Origin: Clostridia bacterium
Lineage (GTDB): Bacteria > Bacillota > Clostridia > Christensenellales > RUG350
DNA: 64,000 bases
Assembly (NCBI GenBank): GCA_017631635.1
Contig: JAGBSX010000042.1
Span: forward strand, 2,330 to 66,329
Direction: 5' to 3'
Part shown: positions 6,416 to 46,383 of the stretch, piece after piece
Position numbering within the stretch: position 1 is the first letter of the stretch
How the letters are laid out: every line of letters begins with the position of its first letter
Made by a program: the position numbers and the translations under genes
Notes under the pieces: model-generated
The model's database searches: none
Told to the model about the DNA's origin: nothing
What the model saw: only the letters and a program-made list of their open reading frames with translations

Positions 6416-9082
6416 TTAGGCTATCTTGGTGATCTCTTTGGTATCAGTATTTATCTTGTAAAGATGACTATCTCCGCCTACTCCACCTAGAAGATAATTA
6501 ACGAAATATACGTCATTTTCTATAACTGTAATAGCCTTAGTGTAATAAGTCACTCCAGATACAGTTCTCTCCATTATCTTGGTAGCAGTATTTGAATTCG
6601 TATTCACTACGTAAAGTCCTGCTTTTGCATTGCTGATAGTATCCGAATAGATGTATACCTTATTACCACTATTTGATATCTCCACAGGGTCTACGTCCAT
6701 TATCCACCTAGCATATCCACTACCGTCTACGTTGACTTTAGATAGACATCTGCTAATTCCATAAGTCTCACGGAAATATACTACTCCGTCACTTATCTCA
6801 AATACGTTGACTTTTGGCCCGTCAAATACTAGAGTTGCCTCATCTTGGACATATCCGGTAGTAGGCATCTTGTAGAGTTTGTTTCCATTCTCAAAGTAGA
6901 TATATCCATCATAATAGCGTAGGTTGTTTACTCCACTAGAGTACATCATATCGTGAGTACCATCACTCTTGATAACGTGTATAGCAGTAGTAAAACCACC
7001 AGCATTTTTCTCTACGAAGAATACGTTTGTACCATCTCCACAGATATCATTACAATCATAGGTAGATATCTTCTCGGCTACTCCACCAGTCTTGAGGTTG
7101 ATGCGATACATATCGTTGTTGACTATCCAACTCACAGTATTGATATATAGATAATCTCCTATGATACTGAAGTCAACCACCTTGTTTGAAGATATCTTGA
7201 CGCTAGTACCTGTGCTAGGATAATACGCATACAAACACTTATCTTTGTACAAATCTAAGTAATATAGTACTCCATTGTACTCTAGTGTCTTTGAACCCAA
7301 ACTTAGTGGTGTGTACTCAGGTATCTCAAATCCATCTAGTACCTCTACCATTGTATTATTAGAAAGATTGTGGATAATTAGCATTTGGTCGCTTACACGA
7401 TAGTATGCCACTTTGTCGTCACTTATCTTTGTCAATGAAGAATATGTGTCATCTCCTACCAGTTTAGTGCCAGGCAACGAATTGTCCACGGTAGGATATG
7501 CATTGACGTAGTATATACCATCTCCAAAAGCAGATGACGTGAGCAAATCTACGTTGACATAATACAATTTGTTTCCTATCAAGGTGAGATTAGCACCTGC
7601 ATCAATAGTGAGTTTTCTCGTAGCACCATTAGATATCTTATAACTAGCGATATAGTTGCCTAGTAGATTGTCTACTGTGTAGAATAGATATCCGTTGTCT
7701 AGGGTAAGTGTAGAGATTTTTTCATCTACTACTAGTGTCCTAGCAGTACCACTAGTAGACATTTTTGATAGTTTGTAACCGTTAGCACCATCTGCAAAGT
7801 ATAGGTATCCGTTATAATATTGTAGATACTTAGCCTTGCCTGCTGACAATAGAGTAATAGTAGGCTCTTCACTTCCATTTAGAGTTAGTTTGTATATACC
7901 ACTGCTTGATTGTGTTAGTGCGTTTTTGACAAAATACAAATTAGTACCGTCACTTACTAGATATTCGCCACTCTCTCCAGCTATAGAACTGAGAGAGCCG
8001 TCGCTGATAGATTTAATAGAAGAAAATAGTGATTTGCTTCTAAAATATATATCATCTCCTATCATAGTGAAATTGTATGGTATATCACTAGATATTCTAG
8101 ACACCTCGCTACCGTCATACGCATACAAATAATCTTTGTCCAATGCGTTTGCAAAGTACAACACACCGTCGCTATACAATATATGTCTCTCTGCATCAGA
8201 TCCTTTGATGACCATCTTAGCAGTTAGAGTGAGAGTATGGTAATTTGGATTAGTAATAGTAACCGTTATGTTATAAGTACCACTATCAGTAGCAGTATTT
8301 GTCATACCACTATTTCCCTCACAAGTGTACGTAATGCTAGAGCCTTGTGGTGGTTGTCCTACTATCTCCAACGTCTTGGGATTGCCGTCATACTCAACAC
8401 TCTCGTCTCCAAAACTAATACCACTCATAGTAGCCTTGTTAATAGTCAAAGTGGCAGTTAGAGTGAGAGTATTGTAATTTGGATTAGTAATAGTAGCCGT
8501 TATGTTATAAGTGCCACTATCAGTAGCAGTATTTGTCATACCACTATTTCCCTCACAAGTGTACGTAATGTTAGAGCCTTGTGGTGGTTGTCCTACTATC
8601 TCCAACGTCTTGGGATTGCCGTCATACTCAAAACTCTCGTCTCCAAAAGTAATACCACTCATAGTAGCCTTGTTAATAGTCAAAGTGGCAGTTAGAGTGA
8701 GGGGGTTGTATCCTTCTCCAGACAATGTAGCAGTCGCAGTATATTCACCTGCGTTAGTAGCCATATTGTTTTGATAAGATACGTCTACACCACTAGGGAT
8801 ATTTCCACTCACCAATAGGGTGTGGATATTTCCATCATATGTATAAGTAGCATTAGCAAAACTTACTCCTGTGATATTCTCTAGGGTAGGATCGCTAGTA
8901 CCACCTGTAAGAGTCTCTCCACAACCATCACATACATAATCATTGTTGGTATCTATATGAGTATGTGGTGGAGGAGTATCTCCACCTCCGTCACTAGGAG
9001 TACAAGCGACTAGTCCAGCAGTCGACACCATAGCGACAGATATCAATATCAGCGCTATTTTTTTGAAAAATGAATTATTCAC
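6416..9082 (-). CDS. Large surface lipoprotein: N-terminal MBG-like Ig repeats plus a DUF5050-like beta-propeller region
   Basis: 888 aa, GTG start with an AAGGAG RBS. Lipobox STAGLVAC. Repeats of TLTATLTINKATMSGI.FGDES.EYDGNPKTLEIVGQPPQGS.ITYTCEGNSGMTNTATDSGTYNIT. The C-terminal 550 aa carry many recurring hydrophobic Y/F...LY(F/Y)-type blades. Confidence 0.8.
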   Translation of the reverse strand: MNNSFFKKIALILISVAMVSTAGLVACTPSDGGGDTPPPHTHIDTNNDYVCDGCGETLTGGTSDPTLENITGVSFANATYTYDGNIHTLLVSGNIPSGVDVSYQNNMATNAGEYTATATLSGEGYNPLTLTATLTINKATMSGITFGDESFEYDGNPKTLEIVGQPPQGSNITYTCEGNSGMTNTATDSGTYNITATITNPNYNTLTLTATLTINKATMSGISFGDESVEYDGNPKTLEIVGQPPQGSSITYTCEGNSGMTNTATDSGTYNITVTITNPNYHTLTLTAKMVIKGSDAERHILYSDGVLYFANALDKDYLYAYDGSEVSRISSDIPYNFTMIGDDIYFRSKSLFSSIKSISDGSLSSIAGESGEYLVSDGTNLYFVKNALTQSSSGIYKLTLNGSEEPTITLLSAGKAKYLQYYNGYLYFADGANGYKLSKMSTSGTARTLVVDEKISTLTLDNGYLFYTVDNLLGNYIASYKISNGATRKLTIDAGANLTLIGNKLYYVNVDLLTSSAFGDGIYYVNAYPTVDNSLPGTKLVGDDTYSSLTKISDDKVAYYRVSDQMLIIHNLSNNTMVEVLDGFEIPEYTPLSLGSKTLEYNGVLYYLDLYKDKCLYAYYPSTGTSVKISSNKVVDFSIIGDYLYINTVSWIVNNDMYRINLKTGGVAEKISTYDCNDICGDGTNVFFVEKNAGGFTTAIHVIKSDGTHDMMYSSGVNNLRYYDGYIYFENGNKLYKMPTTGYVQDEATLVFDGPKVNVFEISDGVVYFRETYGISRCLSKVNVDGSGYARWIMDVDPVEISNSGNKVYIYSDTISNAKAGLYVVNTNSNTATKIMERTVSGVTYYTKAITVIENDVYFVNYLLGGVGGDSHLYKINTDTKEITKIA
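8220..8687. repeat. Two tandem 234-bp (78-codon) coding repeats inside the lipoprotein gene
   Basis: Copies at 8220-8453 and 8454-8687 differ at 6 positions by hand alignment. A third, diverged copy starts at 8688. Confidence 0.9.
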
Positions 9083-9109: not shown

Positions 9110-9940
9110 TTAAAAACGGCTAGCAGTCGTTTCTATTTCTTCTGCTTTTTGTCTGTTTCTACTGATTATAGCAAATGGTAGTGCTATACCCGAATATGCT
9201 AGAGACACTACTACTCCTATCAAGAATATAATTATAGATAGTAGACCTAACAAAATAGCAAGTACTAGTTTTACGGTGATTAACCATATAATACCGTCTA
9301 GGCTCAATTCGAATATCAAGCCTGGTCCTCTAAACGAACGGCAAAAGAACAAGAAACAATCAAATACCGAATTTCCCCATATCATCTGTGTGATAAATGT
9401 AAATATGCAATACGCGCCTACTACGCATACAGGTATGGACGTATATTGATTGCTAGTTATCACGTGTACCAATGATGCTATTAGAGCAATAATTCCTATG
9501 ATACCACCCCAAATGTAGCCCTTATTAGTATTCGCATCAAATGCGTTCGCAGTATTTTTGACGGCATCTTCTTTTCTCTTGGCTTGACAGTCGTCGCAGT
9601 ATATATATTGTCTACCAACATCATCAGTCTGCATAGTGTATGCGCCTGGTTCTACAGGCTTTTGACACATAGAGCAATATCCTGCTATTACCTTGGTCAC
9701 AACTTTCTCTTCACTCTCTCCGACCTCATTGTCAGTCACGTCTGCAGTCCCTAAGAATTCATTGGCAGTCACACCAAACAAATCACATATTTTTTTGATA
9801 CTGTCTAGGTCTGGCTGTGACAAATCGTTTTCCCATTTTGAAACTGCTTGAGAGGTAACGTTCAACTTTTCGCCAAGTTCGGCTTGAGTCATACCACTTT
9901 TAATTCTTAGCTGTCTAATCTTAGCACCATACTTTTCCAT
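9110..9940 (-). CDS. Membrane-anchored XRE-family HTH regulator with a central zinc-ribbon
   Basis: 276 aa. HTH: IRQLRIKSGMTQAELGEKLNVTSQAVSKWEN. CSMCQ...CDDCQ cysteine pairs. The C-terminal half has about 4 TM helices. Confidence 0.8.
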   Translation of the reverse strand: MEKYGAKIRQLRIKSGMTQAELGEKLNVTSQAVSKWENDLSQPDLDSIKKICDLFGVTANEFLGTADVTDNEVGESEEKVVTKVIAGYCSMCQKPVEPGAYTMQTDDVGRQYIYCDDCQAKRKEDAVKNTANAFDANTNKGYIWGGIIGIIALIASLVHVITSNQYTSIPVCVVGAYCIFTFITQMIWGNSVFDCFLFFCRSFRGPGLIFELSLDGIIWLITVKLVLAILLGLLSIIIFLIGVVVSLAYSGIALPFAIISRNRQKAEEIETTASRF

Positions 9941-10042: not shown

Positions 10043-10082
10043 GCGTAAAAAACGGTTGTTTTTTTAATATTTTTCATAAATA

Positions 10083-10116
10083 TAAAAAAATGTCGCAAGC
10101 AAAGTTGCTCACGACA
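10083..10116 (-). terminator. Intrinsic terminator closing the orphan structured RNA
   Basis: Minus strand tgtcgtgagca-actt-tgcttgcgaca (11 bp including 2 G-U pairs) followed by ttttttta. Confidence 0.7.
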
Positions 10117-10247
10117 CTGTAGAAATGCCATATCTTTGCTTGTTGCGACACAAGTTACTAATATCTTTGAGGATTTTTAGTACAATAAAGGTACAGCACT
10201 CTTACCGAAGATGTGCCTCAAAGATAAAAATTATTCACTTATGTCGC
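10085..10247 (-). ncRNA. Unclassified ~165-nt structured RNA (sRNA or cis-acting leader/attenuator)
   Basis: Bounded by a near-consensus promoter and an intrinsic terminator. Long imperfect hairpin: gcgacataagt pairs with acttgtgtcgc, and atctttgagg pairs with cctcaaagat. It also has an alternative antiterminator-like pairing. Confidence 0.45.
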
Positions 10248-10253
10248 AATTTT

Positions 10254-10282
10254 ATTATATTATTTATCCATTGTTAAGTCAA
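10254..10282 (-). promoter_or_regulatory. Near-consensus sigma-70-type promoter of the structured RNA
   Basis: Minus strand TTGACT-17 nt-TATAAT. Confidence 0.65.
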
Positions 10283-10318
10283 TAGTTTTGCAACTTAAAC
10301 TTATTTAACCAACCAAAA

Positions 10319-24221: not shown

Positions 24222-24310
24222 CAAAACTGCTGGGGGTGGCGAAGATACTTCGCCTGAGATACACTCTTTGAACTTGAACGAGGTCATACTCGCGTAAGGA
24301 AGCGTATATT
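24222..24310 (+). promoter_or_regulatory. TPP (THI-box) riboswitch
   Basis: ctgggggtg...cctgagat...gaacttgaacgaggtcatactcgcgtaaggaag parallels the THI-box core (CUGGGGUG, CUGAGA, ACCUGA..GG.UAAU.CC.GCG.AGGGA). A ThiT gene follows downstream. Confidence 0.8.
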
Positions 24311-24390
24311 ATACGAAATATGAGTACCATAGCACTATTTTAGTCTAGGTACTTTTTATTTTGTCCCCCTTAAAAAAAGGAGGTACACGT

Positions 24391-43539: not shown

Positions 43540-43571
43540 AAAGCAACGATATTTTTCGTTGCTTTTTTGAT
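43540..43571. terminator. Terminator at the left edge of the AT-rich islet
   Basis: aagcaacga-tattttt-cgttgctt followed by ttttga. Confidence 0.7.
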
Positions 43572-44698
43572 TATCTATTTGATTTTCTCCTATTATGCTC
43601 CTTACAAAGCATTTGACAGTTGTCAATACTTGTTTTTCCACCCTCGCACCAAGGAGTAATATGGTCTGCCTCCATTTCATTTATTTCGTAGTGCGTTTTT
43701 TCACGGTGTTCGGCTACACAATGAGGGCAAACTCCTTGTTGACGTTCATACACTTTCCTTTTTTCATTATCTGTAAAAGAACGTATGCTGAGATGTTTTT
43801 CATCGCCAGATAGTAAATATTCATAAATTCCAGATGGCTTTGTCACATCATCATCTTGCATAAGAATTACTATTTTTTCTTCTAGTTCTTGAGGATTATA
43901 GACCTTATCTCCATACTTATTATACAAAATTCCCCAAGGCAACCCTTTCATCTCCTTGCGATACTTTGGGAATATTGTCTGTACCCAAGATATGACCGAT
44001 TGAAAATATTGCCAAAGCGGTGTGGCGTGGCTATCGTGCTGATGAATAGACATATAATCTTCTATCATCATATTTTCTCTATTAGCAAGCCAGTCCAAAG
44101 CCCTCTCCAAATAATCTTGTCTATTTACCTCTCCTTTTATATACTCTTTTGCCAAAAGGTATGCTACACAACCATTTTTAGAAAAATATCTCTTCGCATC
44201 AGAGAGCCACTCACCTGTATATATGGCATTGCGCAATTCTTGAGCCGTTAATTGCACTCCTGCTATATTGATTGTCTTAAACCAATCTAGTTTTTCCTTA
44301 TCATTGCCTTCGCAAATATAAATCATAAGTGGATAATCCAATATCTGATTTTGTTCTGCCACTGTTAGATTGTGAAATTTTGCAGTCCTTCCAAAAGCCT
44401 CTAGACAAACGGAAAATTTATTGTCAACGTATTGACAAATAGAAATGGTGCGTTGTTGTCCGTCCAAAAGTTCATAATTACCACTCTCATCTTCTACCCA
44501 ATACATTACGTTGAGAGGAAAGCCTTTGACTATCGTTTCTATGACTGCATTTCGTTCTTTATCTTTGTAGACAAATTCTCGCTGAAAAGCAGGGCGAATA
44601 TTCAACCTACCACCATAACCTACCACACCATTTTCTTGACTGTCCATATATCCCTTGACAACGTCTCTTATTTTAATTTCGTATAATTCTATTTTCAT
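43571..44698 (-). CDS. DUF262 (ParB/Srx-like, DGQQR) domain fused to a C-terminal HNH endonuclease
   Basis: 375 aa. IRPAFQREFVY and LLDGQQRTISI (DUF262 motifs). C-terminus CPHC...ADHITPWCEGGKTSIDNCQMLCKEHNRRKSN (HNH). Confidence 0.85.
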   Translation of the reverse strand: MKIELYEIKIRDVVKGYMDSQENGVVGYGGRLNIRPAFQREFVYKDKERNAVIETIVKGFPLNVMYWVEDESGNYELLDGQQRTISICQYVDNKFSVCLEAFGRTAKFHNLTVAEQNQILDYPLMIYICEGNDKEKLDWFKTINIAGVQLTAQELRNAIYTGEWLSDAKRYFSKNGCVAYLLAKEYIKGEVNRQDYLERALDWLANRENMMIEDYMSIHQHDSHATPLWQYFQSVISWVQTIFPKYRKEMKGLPWGILYNKYGDKVYNPQELEEKIVILMQDDDVTKPSGIYEYLLSGDEKHLSIRSFTDNEKRKVYERQQGVCPHCVAEHREKTHYEINEMEADHITPWCEGGKTSIDNCQMLCKEHNRRKSNR

Positions 44699-45841
44699 TT
44701 ACTTTTTTCTCCTTTTTATAACTATTCTCATATAAGGAATAACGGGCTTTCCGTTTTTATCATAATAAGCAAGAACTGGATGGTCTTCCTTAATAGAGCC
44801 TTTGCCACCAAATTTATAATAATCATCTACAAATTTTTTTGTAAGCCCCTTAGGTGTTAATTCTCTGTATAAATTGCCTTGTCCTTGCCCAACAATCTCA
44901 AATTGCTCAGGGTTATACTTGTCAATAAAAGTTATAGGCACACCCATTTCTCCTTCGTAGTCGTATGGAATATCTGACACTTTGTCCACATTTATAGCAG
45001 GGTAGTTATCGTATTCAGGATATTCATCAATTGTATATTTTTTGTAACAAATTAATTCTTCATAATGTTTTTTGATTTTTAAATTTGTATACCAATTAAC
45101 TGCTGGAACTTTTATGTAATTATCATTAGGATCAAATCCTTTTGATTTTACAAATTTTTTGTTTGCTTCAAGAGTGTTGTCATATACTGACTTATATATC
45201 ATACTTAAATTAAATCCAAATCCTGCCCAAAGTTTATTCTTCTTGATTAGAGTAAAAATTTCTTTATAAGTTATTGCGTTCATATTACCTATTATTATAA
45301 ACTTTTTATCATATTCAATAAGTTGTGCTATATATTCACGAAAAAGTGAAAATGGAGGATTTGTTACTACTATATCGCACTCTTTTAGCAACTCTATACA
45401 CTCATCACTGCGAAAATCTCCATTGCCTTTTAGTAAACAAAGAGAGTTTTTGTCATTTTTCAACAAATATTCTACGTCCGCCAAATCTACCGCACCATCA
45501 TTATTATAATCTAACACTTCACTTATCTCTATCTTGTATGCCTTTCTATTATTGTTTGGAATAGCAGTTGCTTGCACATCTTCCAAAAAGGAAAGTTGAC
45601 TATACGCGATAGGAGAATTGTCGTAACTGGTGCAAATTAGTTTCTTGAGACCAAGATAATTAAAATTCATAGCAAAATACTTAAAAAAATTGCTCTCAAA
45701 TGGGTCATCACAATTACAAAACACTATTTTATCCTTAAAATATTCTTTGTAATGCTCTAATTCTTTTTCAATATCAACAAGTTGAGTATAGAACTCGTCT
45801 TTCTTCGATTTCTTTGCCTTAATCAAATTTTCCTTTGCCAT
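44699..45841 (-). CDS. EcoRI-methylase-family N6-adenine DNA methyltransferase
   Basis: N-terminus KKDEFYTQLVDIEKELEHYKEYFKDKIVFCNCDDP and catalytic VVTNPPFSLFREY (NPPF). Start trimmed to MAKENLIK (AAAGGAG RBS). Its stop TAA abuts the ATG of the nuclease gene. Confidence 0.85.
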   Translation of the reverse strand: MAKENLIKAKKSKKDEFYTQLVDIEKELEHYKEYFKDKIVFCNCDDPFESNFFKYFAMNFNYLGLKKLICTSYDNSPIAYSQLSFLEDVQATAIPNNNRKAYKIEISEVLDYNNDGAVDLADVEYLLKNDKNSLCLLKGNGDFRSDECIELLKECDIVVTNPPFSLFREYIAQLIEYDKKFIIIGNMNAITYKEIFTLIKKNKLWAGFGFNLSMIYKSVYDNTLEANKKFVKSKGFDPNDNYIKVPAVNWYTNLKIKKHYEELICYKKYTIDEYPEYDNYPAINVDKVSDIPYDYEGEMGVPITFIDKYNPEQFEIVGQGQGNLYRELTPKGLTKKFVDDYYKFGGKGSIKEDHPVLAYYDKNGKPVIPYMRIVIKRRKK

Positions 45842-45881
45842 TGCTTTGGTACTCCTTTTGTATAAAGTCGCACCTTTTCTT

Positions 45882-45914
45882 AAAATAAAAAAGTGCGTAA
45901 CCTGAGTTACGCAC
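45882..45914 (-). terminator. Intrinsic terminator about 40 nt upstream of the methyltransferase ATG
   Basis: Minus strand gtgcgtaac-tcag-gttacgcac followed by ttttttatttt. Confidence 0.75.
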
Positions 45915-46083
45915 ATAAAACGCAAACTCTGGTTATCGCCAGATAAAACCTAATGAAAATGAGTAAACACTCCCACTTGAGTTTGCATTTTTAGCAAAGT
46001 ACAATAATGGGAGTATGACCAAAAAAGAGTATAGTTATCCTCTAGTCTACTCATTTTCATTTTTTTATTAAGTTTTATCTGGC
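45884..46083 (-). ncRNA. Unclassified ~200-nt structured leader or ncRNA preceding the methyltransferase-nuclease operon
   Basis: Has its own promoter and terminator. Long imperfect inverted repeat: 46048-46082 pairs with 45939-45965. Inner stem actccca/tgggagt. A 13-nt apical segment aaaatgcaaactc is complementary to gagtttgcgtttt, just 5' of the terminator. Confidence 0.45.
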
Positions 46084-46089
46084 AAATTT

Positions 46090-46117
46090 AGTATATCACA
46101 CTTTTATACTTTTTCAA
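46090..46117 (-). promoter_or_regulatory. Sigma-70-type promoter with extended -10, driving the leader and probably the R-M-like operon
   Basis: Minus strand TTGAAA-16 nt-(TGa)TATACT. Confidence 0.55.
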
Positions 46118-46159: not shown

Positions 46160-46190
46160 AAAAAAAGCGGTGTACACCGCTTTTTTGATA
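46160..46190. terminator. Bidirectional terminator at the right edge of the islet
   Basis: aaaaaaaagcggtgtacaccgctttttt. Confidence 0.8.
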
Positions 46191-46194
46191 TTCT

Positions 46195-46383
46195 CTACCA
46201 GTCTTCTCTACTCTTCGTTCTATCCTTGACGTCGTCGTAGTACTCAAAGTACTTCTCTCTATATCTATCTACCGATTGCGTAGAGGTCTTTTTCTTCTTT
46301 GCCTTTTCTCGCTCCTCTGGGGTGGTCTCTCTCACCTCAAAGTCTCCATATCCACTAAAGTGTATTTGACCATCTCTATCCAT
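46195..46383 (-). CDS. Small, highly charged hypothetical protein
   Basis: 62 aa. Starts 2 nt after the rsmF stop, so it is probably translationally coupled. Confidence 0.4.
   Translation of the reverse strand: MDRDGQIHFSGYGDFEVRETTPEEREKAKKKKTSTQSVDRYREKYFEYYDDVKDRTKSREDW

Follow-up and report, generated by a model that had tools for sequence, protein, structure and literature searches.

The pyr attenuators of Bacillus subtilis, which respond to PyrR, form three successive and mutually exclusive helices, the most upstream of which, the anti-antiterminator, permits the terminator to fold. Each pyr leader has its own promoter, and there are several copies per genome. We analyzed an element with the same layout in a 64,000-nucleotide (nt) stretch from a Clostridia bacterium (GenBank assembly GCA_017631635.1, contig JAGBSX010000042.1, positions 2,330 to 66,329), here called the window. 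The element is a folded leader RNA of ~205 nt, all parts of which lie on the minus strand at 46117-45882, in front of a Type II restriction-modification (R-M) operon. In the pyr leaders, however, the anti-antiterminator is a local hairpin stabilized by PyrR and uridine monophosphate (UMP), whereas here it is a predicted long-range pseudoknot between the apical loop of a stem (P3) and the 3' tail of the leader. Unlike the pyr leaders, this one has neither a PyrR-type binding loop nor a pyrimidine gene context.

Two other classes of RNA control show a similar logic. In the preQ1-I and S-box S-adenosylmethionine (SAM-I) OFF riboswitches, as predicted here, a pseudoknot or helix sequesters the 3' tail, so that the antiterminator loses one of its strands and the terminator can form. 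In contrast to those riboswitches, the window leader has no evident ligand pocket, its ~150-nt three-way-junction domain varies freely within the family, conservation is highest in the expression platform, and there is no Rfam match. In the countertranscript-controlled attenuators of pT181, pIP501, and pAMbeta1, the choice between terminator and pre-emptor is likewise set by engagement of a leader loop with complementary RNA. There, the complement is an antisense transcript acting in trans, whereas here it is the tail, in cis, and antisense promoters occur at the frequency seen in shuffled sequence.

Type II R-M systems are known to be controlled by C-protein/C-box circuits and, in EcoRI and Eco29kI, by antisense RNAs. 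The window leader resembles these in being placed immediately upstream of an R-M operon that would be harmful if uncontrolled, but no C gene and no enrichment of antisense promoters was found, and the leader is a generic one shared with unrelated genes. The cyclic di-GMP (c-di-GMP) riboswitches of Clostridia, classes I and II, also have terminator platforms and occur in multiple copies per genome in front of genes for surface proteins such as adhesins and collagen-like proteins; unlike them, our leader has no sequence or structure match in Rfam, and no GGDEF domain was detected in the genome.

In our proposed reading, the element acts in cis as a conditional attenuator of transcription: a terminator switch of three helices, with off as its default state and a strong promoter of its own. 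We put the probability of this reading at roughly 60%. If the switch works in this way, one RNA design, with competing helices that are defined to the base, would govern surface adhesins, lipoproteins, and some defense systems in hundreds of Clostridia species of the gut and rumen that have not been cultured. Such surface and defense genes shape interactions with hosts and phages. In the window, it would mean that an R-M operon without its own promoter is expressed when transcription reads through a generic leader of accessory genes, and not under the control of a C protein.

Competing helices in the leader

The leader folds far more stably than expected from its composition. The predicted minimum free energy of the 211-nt sequence is -75.6 kcal/mol, compared to -37.1 +/- 3.9 kcal/mol for 200 dinucleotide-preserving shuffles, none of which folded as well (z = -9.97). 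A first-pass annotation of the window, based on its letters and open reading frames (ORFs), had placed a promoter where the closing helix begins, and a promoter scan found it there: a sigma-A-type site, TTGAAA-16-TG-n-TATACT, at 46090-46117 on the minus strand, with 10 of 12 matches. It consists of TTGAAA at 46117-46112, a 16-nt spacer, an extended TG at 46098-46097, and TATACT at 46095-46090 (TTGAAA-16-TGATATACT). A distance of 6 nt separates the end of the -10 element from the start of the closing helix P1 (G46083), and transcription would start at ~46084-46083. The same 6-nt spacing occurs in 90 of 120 members of the leader family described below, and the extended TG in 95 of 120.

The fold is a three-way junction of helices P1, P2, and P3. 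P1 joins a 5' arm at 46048-46085 (UUGCCAGAUAAAACUUA ... AUGAAAAUGAGUA) to a 3' arm at 45936-45965 (UACUCAUUUUCAU ... UAGGUUUUAUCUGGC), both identified by folding, a repeat finder, and covariation. Its closing helix, GCCAGAUAAAAC/GUUUUAUCUGGC, differs from the consensus GCCAAAC/GUUUGGC by covarying changes and encloses P2 and P3; outer P1 covaries in all 14 pairs tested across 120 members. The repeat finder recovered the outer imperfect inverted repeat of the first-pass annotation as two arm pairs (I1 and I2), 22 nt long at 91% and 17 nt long at 94% complementarity, and the inner stem that it described, ACUCCCA/UGGGAGU, is present in the minimum-energy fold. P2 is a hairpin at 46017-46047, here GAGGAUAACUAUACUC for the family consensus GGGAUAUUAUACCC, followed by a run of six U residues; 73.6% of its alignment cells are paired (helix 2), and four of five pairs are changed on both sides. 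P3, at 45967-46016, has the stem CAUACUCCCA/UGGGAGUGU and ends in an apical hairpin, UUUGC-UAAAAAU-GCAAA, whose stem is ~90% paired across the family. We read a 36-codon ORF inside the window copy as chance, as it has no ribosome-binding site, and its counterpart in L002, the one other copy read, stops after three codons.

Three pairings near the 3' end exclude one another. The first is the pseudoknot, or anti-antiterminator. Its 5' strand is the apical segment AAAAUGCAAACUC (45979-45991) and its 3' strand is the tail GAGUUUGCGUUUU (45917-45929), which were identified by the repeat finder (I6), covariation, and energetics. As had been noted before, these segments are complementary: they match over 13 contiguous nt, with 92% complementarity as DNA, and the single exception is a G-U pair in RNA. 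The second pairing is the antiterminator. Its 5' strand, GCG-A-UAACC-A-GAG (45927-45939), consists of the end of P1, the linker, and the first tail bases, which it shares with the pseudoknot, and it pairs with 45906-45895. In the window copy, the antiterminator has 13 pairs, one A-A mismatch, and one A bulge, and two positions differ from the consensus on both sides. The third is the intrinsic terminator at 45882-45914, a 9-bp stem (GUGCGUAAC/GUUACGCAC) with a UCAG loop followed by U6AU4; the hairpin proper spans 45914-45893, and the U-tract runs to 45882. This agrees with the strong terminator that the first-pass annotation had placed just 3' of the complementary segment. Three features are new relative to that annotation, namely the antiterminator pairing, the P2 hairpin with its U-run, and membership in a large family.

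We counted covariation on the 120-member alignment, using slid pairings and shuffles as controls, and it backs the closing helix, the loop-tail pseudoknot, and the terminator of the attenuator-like layout suggested earlier. For the nested helices (P1, P2, the P3 apex, and the terminator), 91.7% of cells are paired, compared to 31-44% for slid pairings; 25 of 36 pairs are changed on both sides, and none of 500 shuffles reaches the observed value. Within this set, the terminator (helix 5) is 98.3% paired and has three double-changed pairs. The loop-tail pseudoknot is paired in 98.8% of cells (27-61% in slid controls). The antiterminator, which joins the linker and first tail bases to the last base of the terminator 5' arm, the loop, and the 3' arm, is paired in 95.4% (33-46% in slid controls), with 60 double-change cells against 2-16. 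A variable linker base tracks its partner in the terminator 3' arm (A-U in 51 cases, U-A in 38, and U-G in 16), and the rare terminator-loop variants UUUG, UCUG, and UCCG all preserve antiterminator pairing.

Predicted energies give these pairings an order. In the isolated 3' segment of the window copy, the antiterminator is the minimum-energy fold at -19.5 kcal/mol, compared to -13.0 kcal/mol for the terminator hairpin, and the same preference holds in five other copies. The loop-tail duplex is predicted at -17.4 kcal/mol, compared to -3.7 kcal/mol for the apical hairpin that it displaces. The pseudoknot together with the terminator is therefore the predicted ground state, which would make the leader off by default.

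The proposed switch would work as follows. After initiation at ~46084, the RNA would fold into the three-way junction, and the linker and tail (GAUAACCAGAGUUUGCGUUUU) would emerge next, with two mutually exclusive partners available to the tail. In the off state, the tail would invade the weak P3 apical hairpin to form the 13-bp pseudoknot with AAAAUGCAAACUC, leaving the terminator at 45914-45893 free to fold and release an RNA of ~205 nt. In the on state, a free tail and the linker would pair with the last bases of the terminator 5' arm, the loop, and the 3' arm, and RNA polymerase would read through into the methyltransferase-endonuclease operon, which appears to have no promoter of its own. 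The first-pass annotation had suggested that the operon depends on read-through, given ~40 nt with no convincing promoter before the methyltransferase start codon. The layout supports this prediction, as our promoter scan between the U-tract and that ATG found no promoter-like site. Whatever hinders or helps loop-tail pairing would set expression, so that keeping the tail from the loop would turn the leader on. A macromolecule, or a kinetic or ionic condition, seems to us a more probable signal than a classical metabolite, because the three alternative helices hold nearly all conserved bases and no conserved pocket was seen at the junction.

Several points weigh against this model. The complementarities, their covariation, and the geometry of promoter and genes were observed and the energies computed, but termination and read-through are themselves predictions, as are the direction of control and any signal to which the leader responds. 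The mismatch and bulge noted above interrupt the window antiterminator, and the 7-nt linker must span the distance from the base of P1 to the apex of P3, which requires that P3 fold back along P1. In the variable stems, MAFFT aligned the members poorly. Changes in the pseudoknot are mostly one-sided and wobble compatible (U or C opposite G, A or G opposite U), because the pattern used to collect members fixed their tail sequence; copies outside that pattern keep a matched loop and tail of other sequence (GCAGAU with GUCUG in L003 and L019, CCUC with GAGG in unit 1 of G231). Finally, leaders occur in tandem arrays in which each unit has its own promoter and an ORF follows only the last, which suggests that the terminated RNA may have its own function.

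A leader RNA family of gut and rumen Clostridia

The window leader belongs to a widespread family of leader RNAs that is absent from Rfam 15. In BLAST searches of the source genome and its relatives, the 3' 75 nt were found at two further places in the source genome and also in six related genomes, and side-by-side reading showed that the whole architecture is common to all copies. We built two models, R1, which covers 74 positions of the 3' part, and R2, a full-length model from 30 seed members that left out the window copy. R2 matches the window copy end to end (model positions 1-223) with a score of 122.6 bits (E = 5.7e-24). It finds four copies in the source genome, including that of the window. 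The fourth copy (G000:C3:13934-14088; L188 1500-1660) is divergent and shorter and lies directly before a lipoprotein gene (MKKLLISILLILTFACVFVGC...).

The family is common among Clostridia. R1 finds 1-5 copies in 28 of the 151 genomes of an order-level sample and 1-12 copies in 32 of the 151 genomes of a class-level sample, or about 20% of sampled Clostridia. When 185,579 species genomes were scanned with a sequence pattern, at least 120 contigs matched. Among the 80 matches listed with titles, all are metagenome-assembled genomes of gut or rumen Clostridia with one chance exception, and the labels include Oscillospiraceae, Acutalibacteraceae, Christensenellaceae, Faecousia, Fimenecus, Eubacterium sp. 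CAG:180, and similar names.

The first-pass annotation could assign the leader to no known RNA family, and our searches agree. When the window copy and eight other members were searched against Rfam 15 at permissive thresholds, no family reached its gathering threshold; the best match of the window copy was Atu_C8, which scored 24.9 bits (threshold, 50) over the terminator only. We also found no description of the family in the literature searched (full text, and papers on candidate structured RNAs), although large-scale catalogues may hold it among their unnamed candidates.

From 5' to 3', members consist of the promoter, P1, P2, P3, the linker, the tail, the terminator, and then a ribosome-binding site and start codon. 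The P1 consensus is GCCAAACYAAYUGAAUA / UURAGUURGUUUGGC plus a variable extension, and the P2 consensus is followed by a U-run, as in the window. P3 is variable and ends in a conserved apical hairpin, UGAAUUUG-AUAAAAAUG-CAAAUUCC. The linker is GACWAUC, the tail is GGAGUUUGCGUUUU, and the terminator is GUGCG-N4-CUUCGG-N4-CGCAC followed by a U-tract. The consensus apical loop, AAAAUGCAAAYUC, is complementary to the consensus tail, GRGUUUGCGUUUU, and the window copy fits this pairing. It also shows every other family trait tested, namely the R2 match, promoter spacing, P1, antiterminator, and a terminator followed by a ribosome-binding site and ATG.

Most leaders directly precede a gene. A ribosome-binding site and ORF on the same strand follow 115 of 131 units at a median gap of 22 nt, with a gap of at most 45 nt in 94 of them, and such gaps are too short to hold a second promoter. 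The proteins encoded downstream belong to at least 79 different Pfam families and are mostly surface proteins. BspA-type leucine-rich repeats are the most frequent (13), followed by EcoRI-type methyltransferases (5), zinc ribbons (5), and collagen repeats (4), and others include List-Bact repeats, AMP-binding proteins, MazE/AbrB, and the Ltp lipoprotein. About a quarter of downstream proteins have a lipobox-like motif, and R-M operons follow 6 of about 115 leaders.

Some leaders are arranged in tandem arrays of two to four complete promoter-leader-terminator units, spaced 210-260 nt apart. In these arrays, an ORF follows the last unit only. Examples are L169 (G231:C6:110700-113200, positions ~150-1010), L043, and L085, with diverged loop/tail pairs and a spacing of 210-310 nt.

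We tentatively extend the attenuator reading one step further, at odds that we regard as well below even. The family may represent a new class of riboregulator that senses a signal, either as an orphan riboswitch or as an RNA- or protein-sensing attenuator, and that coordinates accessory surface, envelope, and defense genes across much of the gut Clostridia. In that case, the abundant terminated product of ~205 nt may also act in trans, which would explain the tandem units without ORFs.

Alternative explanations and candidate regulators

The leader might instead be a classical metabolite- or ion-sensing riboswitch, in which a ligand bound in the junction or the pseudoknot stabilizes loop-tail pairing (off) or blocks it (on). 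A structured domain, a pseudoknot, and a terminator/antiterminator platform are the look of transcriptional riboswitches, the several copies per genome before different genes resemble a regulon, and the downstream surface-protein genes recall second-messenger regulons. The distribution of conservation points the other way, with nearly all conserved bases in the three competing helices, while the junction and the P1 and P3 stems vary freely. Read by eye, the alignments place conserved columns in the alternative helices and variable columns in the junction, where the alignment is poor and a small pocket could be hidden. The terminator itself is conserved in sequence, which is unusual for riboswitch expression platforms, there is no common metabolic theme among the downstream genes, and no aptamer in Rfam matches. 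We consider a classical riboswitch unlikely.

The leader might also be a stand-alone small RNA (sRNA) gene whose ~205-nt product acts in trans, with adjacency to downstream genes being secondary. Every unit has its own consensus promoter and strong terminator, and this reading would readily accommodate the tandem arrays and the genomes with up to 12 copies. As the main role of the family it seems rather improbable, given how consistently a ribosome-binding site and ORF follow the units at close range. A conserved and covarying antiterminator would be senseless in an RNA that needs only to terminate, and loop and tail changes are matched within each copy rather than uniform within a genome. Hfq was not found in the source genome (1.3 Mb, 95% complete) and is missing from 27 of the 28 carrier genomes in the order-level sample. 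Its presence in 1 of 28 carriers compared to 45 of 123 non-carriers is a near-exclusion that is probably a phylogenetic effect. Because tandem units without an ORF exist, we retain an sRNA function as something that may be a secondary or dual role of the attenuator.

Searches of the source genome for other regulators gave similar results. In this 95%-complete genome, CsrA, the CAT_RBD domain of BglG/SacY-type antiterminators, and GGDEF domains were not found, and neither were ANTAR domains, for which the search control was uninformative. Only one NusG was present, and a second one, of the LoaP type, was not found. We therefore rejected control by Hfq, CsrA, BglG-type proteins, LoaP-type proteins, or c-di-GMP, whose corresponding genes or domains were not found there. 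We also rejected cis-encoded antisense control, as antisense promoter scores within the leader follow the same distribution as those of shuffled sequences.

The lack of a detected regulator of any type tested in this reduced genome could be taken to mean that there is no signal. The leader would then be a constitutive attenuator or insulator cassette, in which a strong promoter and a leaky terminator fix low expression and a stable 5' end for transferred accessory genes. The diverse cargo, which looks accessory or transferred and includes toxic R-M systems, would suit such a device. Three mutually exclusive, covarying helices exceed the needs of a fixed leak, however, and we regard a cassette of this kind as very unlikely.

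An element that acts as DNA, either the transposon like a miniature inverted-repeat transposable element (MITE) that the first-pass annotation had offered as an alternative or an invertible switch like that of cwpV, would explain the long bounding inverted repeats and the several copies per genome but is hardly credible. The four copies in the source genome share at most 77% identity (~76-77%), and only over the 3' 75 nt, about the last third. Differences between the stems are compensatory, and G-U pairs, which would not match at the DNA level, are numerous in them. Among 123 members, none has a clearly flipped inner segment (the orientation is clearly forward in 121 and ambiguous in 2 divergent members), and we rejected an invertible switch of the cwpV/flgB type on these counts. 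A phage-borne element was also rejected, as only 4 matches were found among the 2.9 million viral contigs of IMG/VR.

The R-M operon and other features of the window

The genes behind the window leader are both on the minus strand. The methyltransferase is preceded by a Shine-Dalgarno sequence, GGAG, at 45852-45855, read from the sequence, and starts with an ATG at 45841, about 40 nt from the U-tract compared to the family median of 22 nt. It is a Type II DNA adenine methyltransferase of the EcoRI_methylase family (44699-45841, 380 amino acids [aa]; PF13651, E = 1e-137; PADLOC MTase_II, E = 8e-112). The second gene encodes a Type II restriction endonuclease with GmrSD_N/DUF262 and HNH domains (43571-44698, 375 aa; full-length match to PADLOC REase_II, E = 1.5e-140), and its ATG directly abuts the methyltransferase stop codon. 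With abutting genes behind a single leader, the leader cannot delay the endonuclease relative to the methyltransferase.

The same gene pair follows the same leader in L101, and in L129 an unrelated pair, a D12 methyltransferase and a TdeIII-type endonuclease, follows a leader of the same subtype. In the short untranslated region between the U-tract and ATG, the window copy has a GGUGCGAC box at 45867-45874 on the minus strand together with an AAAGGAGUAYC ribosome-binding-site context. The box occurs at that position, with this context, in five R-M-linked leaders only (window, L009, L029, L101, and L129), although two unrelated R-M systems follow them. The box resembles the terminator 5' arm and could pair with the terminator 3' arm in read-through transcripts.

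The six leaders of one subtype that precede two unrelated Type II R-M operons might recall the R-M-specific RNA timer of the first-pass annotation, which would delay the nuclease during establishment, but the cotranscribed, abutting genes allow no differential delay and the family overwhelmingly precedes non-R-M genes, so the idea has a negligible chance of being right. In 399 Clostridia genomes, none of 10 homologous EcoRI-type methyltransferase loci had the leader. Because of this and the diversity of downstream genes, we conclude that the leader is a portable expression module that sometimes captured R-M cargo, not an R-M-specific control device. A C-protein-controlled system was rejected as well: no small C gene or other helix-turn-helix ORF was found in the islet, where only the methyltransferase and endonuclease lie behind the leader, and an upstream ORF of 62 aa has no Pfam domain. 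An attempt to define the islet boundaries by rsmF synteny found no rsmF homologue at E <= 1e-30 in five relatives from the same family.

The 62-aa ORF is highly charged and lies at 46195-46383 on the minus strand, between rsmF and a hairpin terminator that precedes the leader. This terminator, AAAAAAGCGGUGUACACCGCUUUUUU (46161-46186, no strand assigned), has 13-nt arms with 100% complementarity (repeat finder I3). It closes the upstream unit of rsmF and the 62-aa ORF and insulates the leader promoter. Among 126 members, 7 that come from different genomes (L003, L009, L010, L022, L025, L101, and L148) share with one another a terminator hairpin of nearly identical sequence, AAAACUCGACUU...AAGUCGAGUUUU, located 40-80 nt before the leader promoter, and the conserved cassette may sometimes extend upstream to include it.

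The window also contains a second structured RNA, at 10070-10283 on the minus strand, with a promoter (TTGACT-17-TATAAT), a three-way-junction fold of -56.6 kcal/mol (z = -6.6), and a terminator (GUCGUGAGCAA-CUUU-GCUUGCGAC-U7). It has a weak R2 match (28.5 bits, E = 3e-4) and lacks the canonical loop and tail motifs, and it may be a distant cousin of the leader family. It lies ~130 nt upstream of genes for a helix-turn-helix (HTH-XRE) membrane protein (9110-9940) and an 888-aa lipoprotein (6416-9082). Elsewhere in the window, a thiamine pyrophosphate (TPP) riboswitch (RF00059) at 24222-24317 on the plus strand, with 63.3 bits, is the sole Rfam match above its gathering score.

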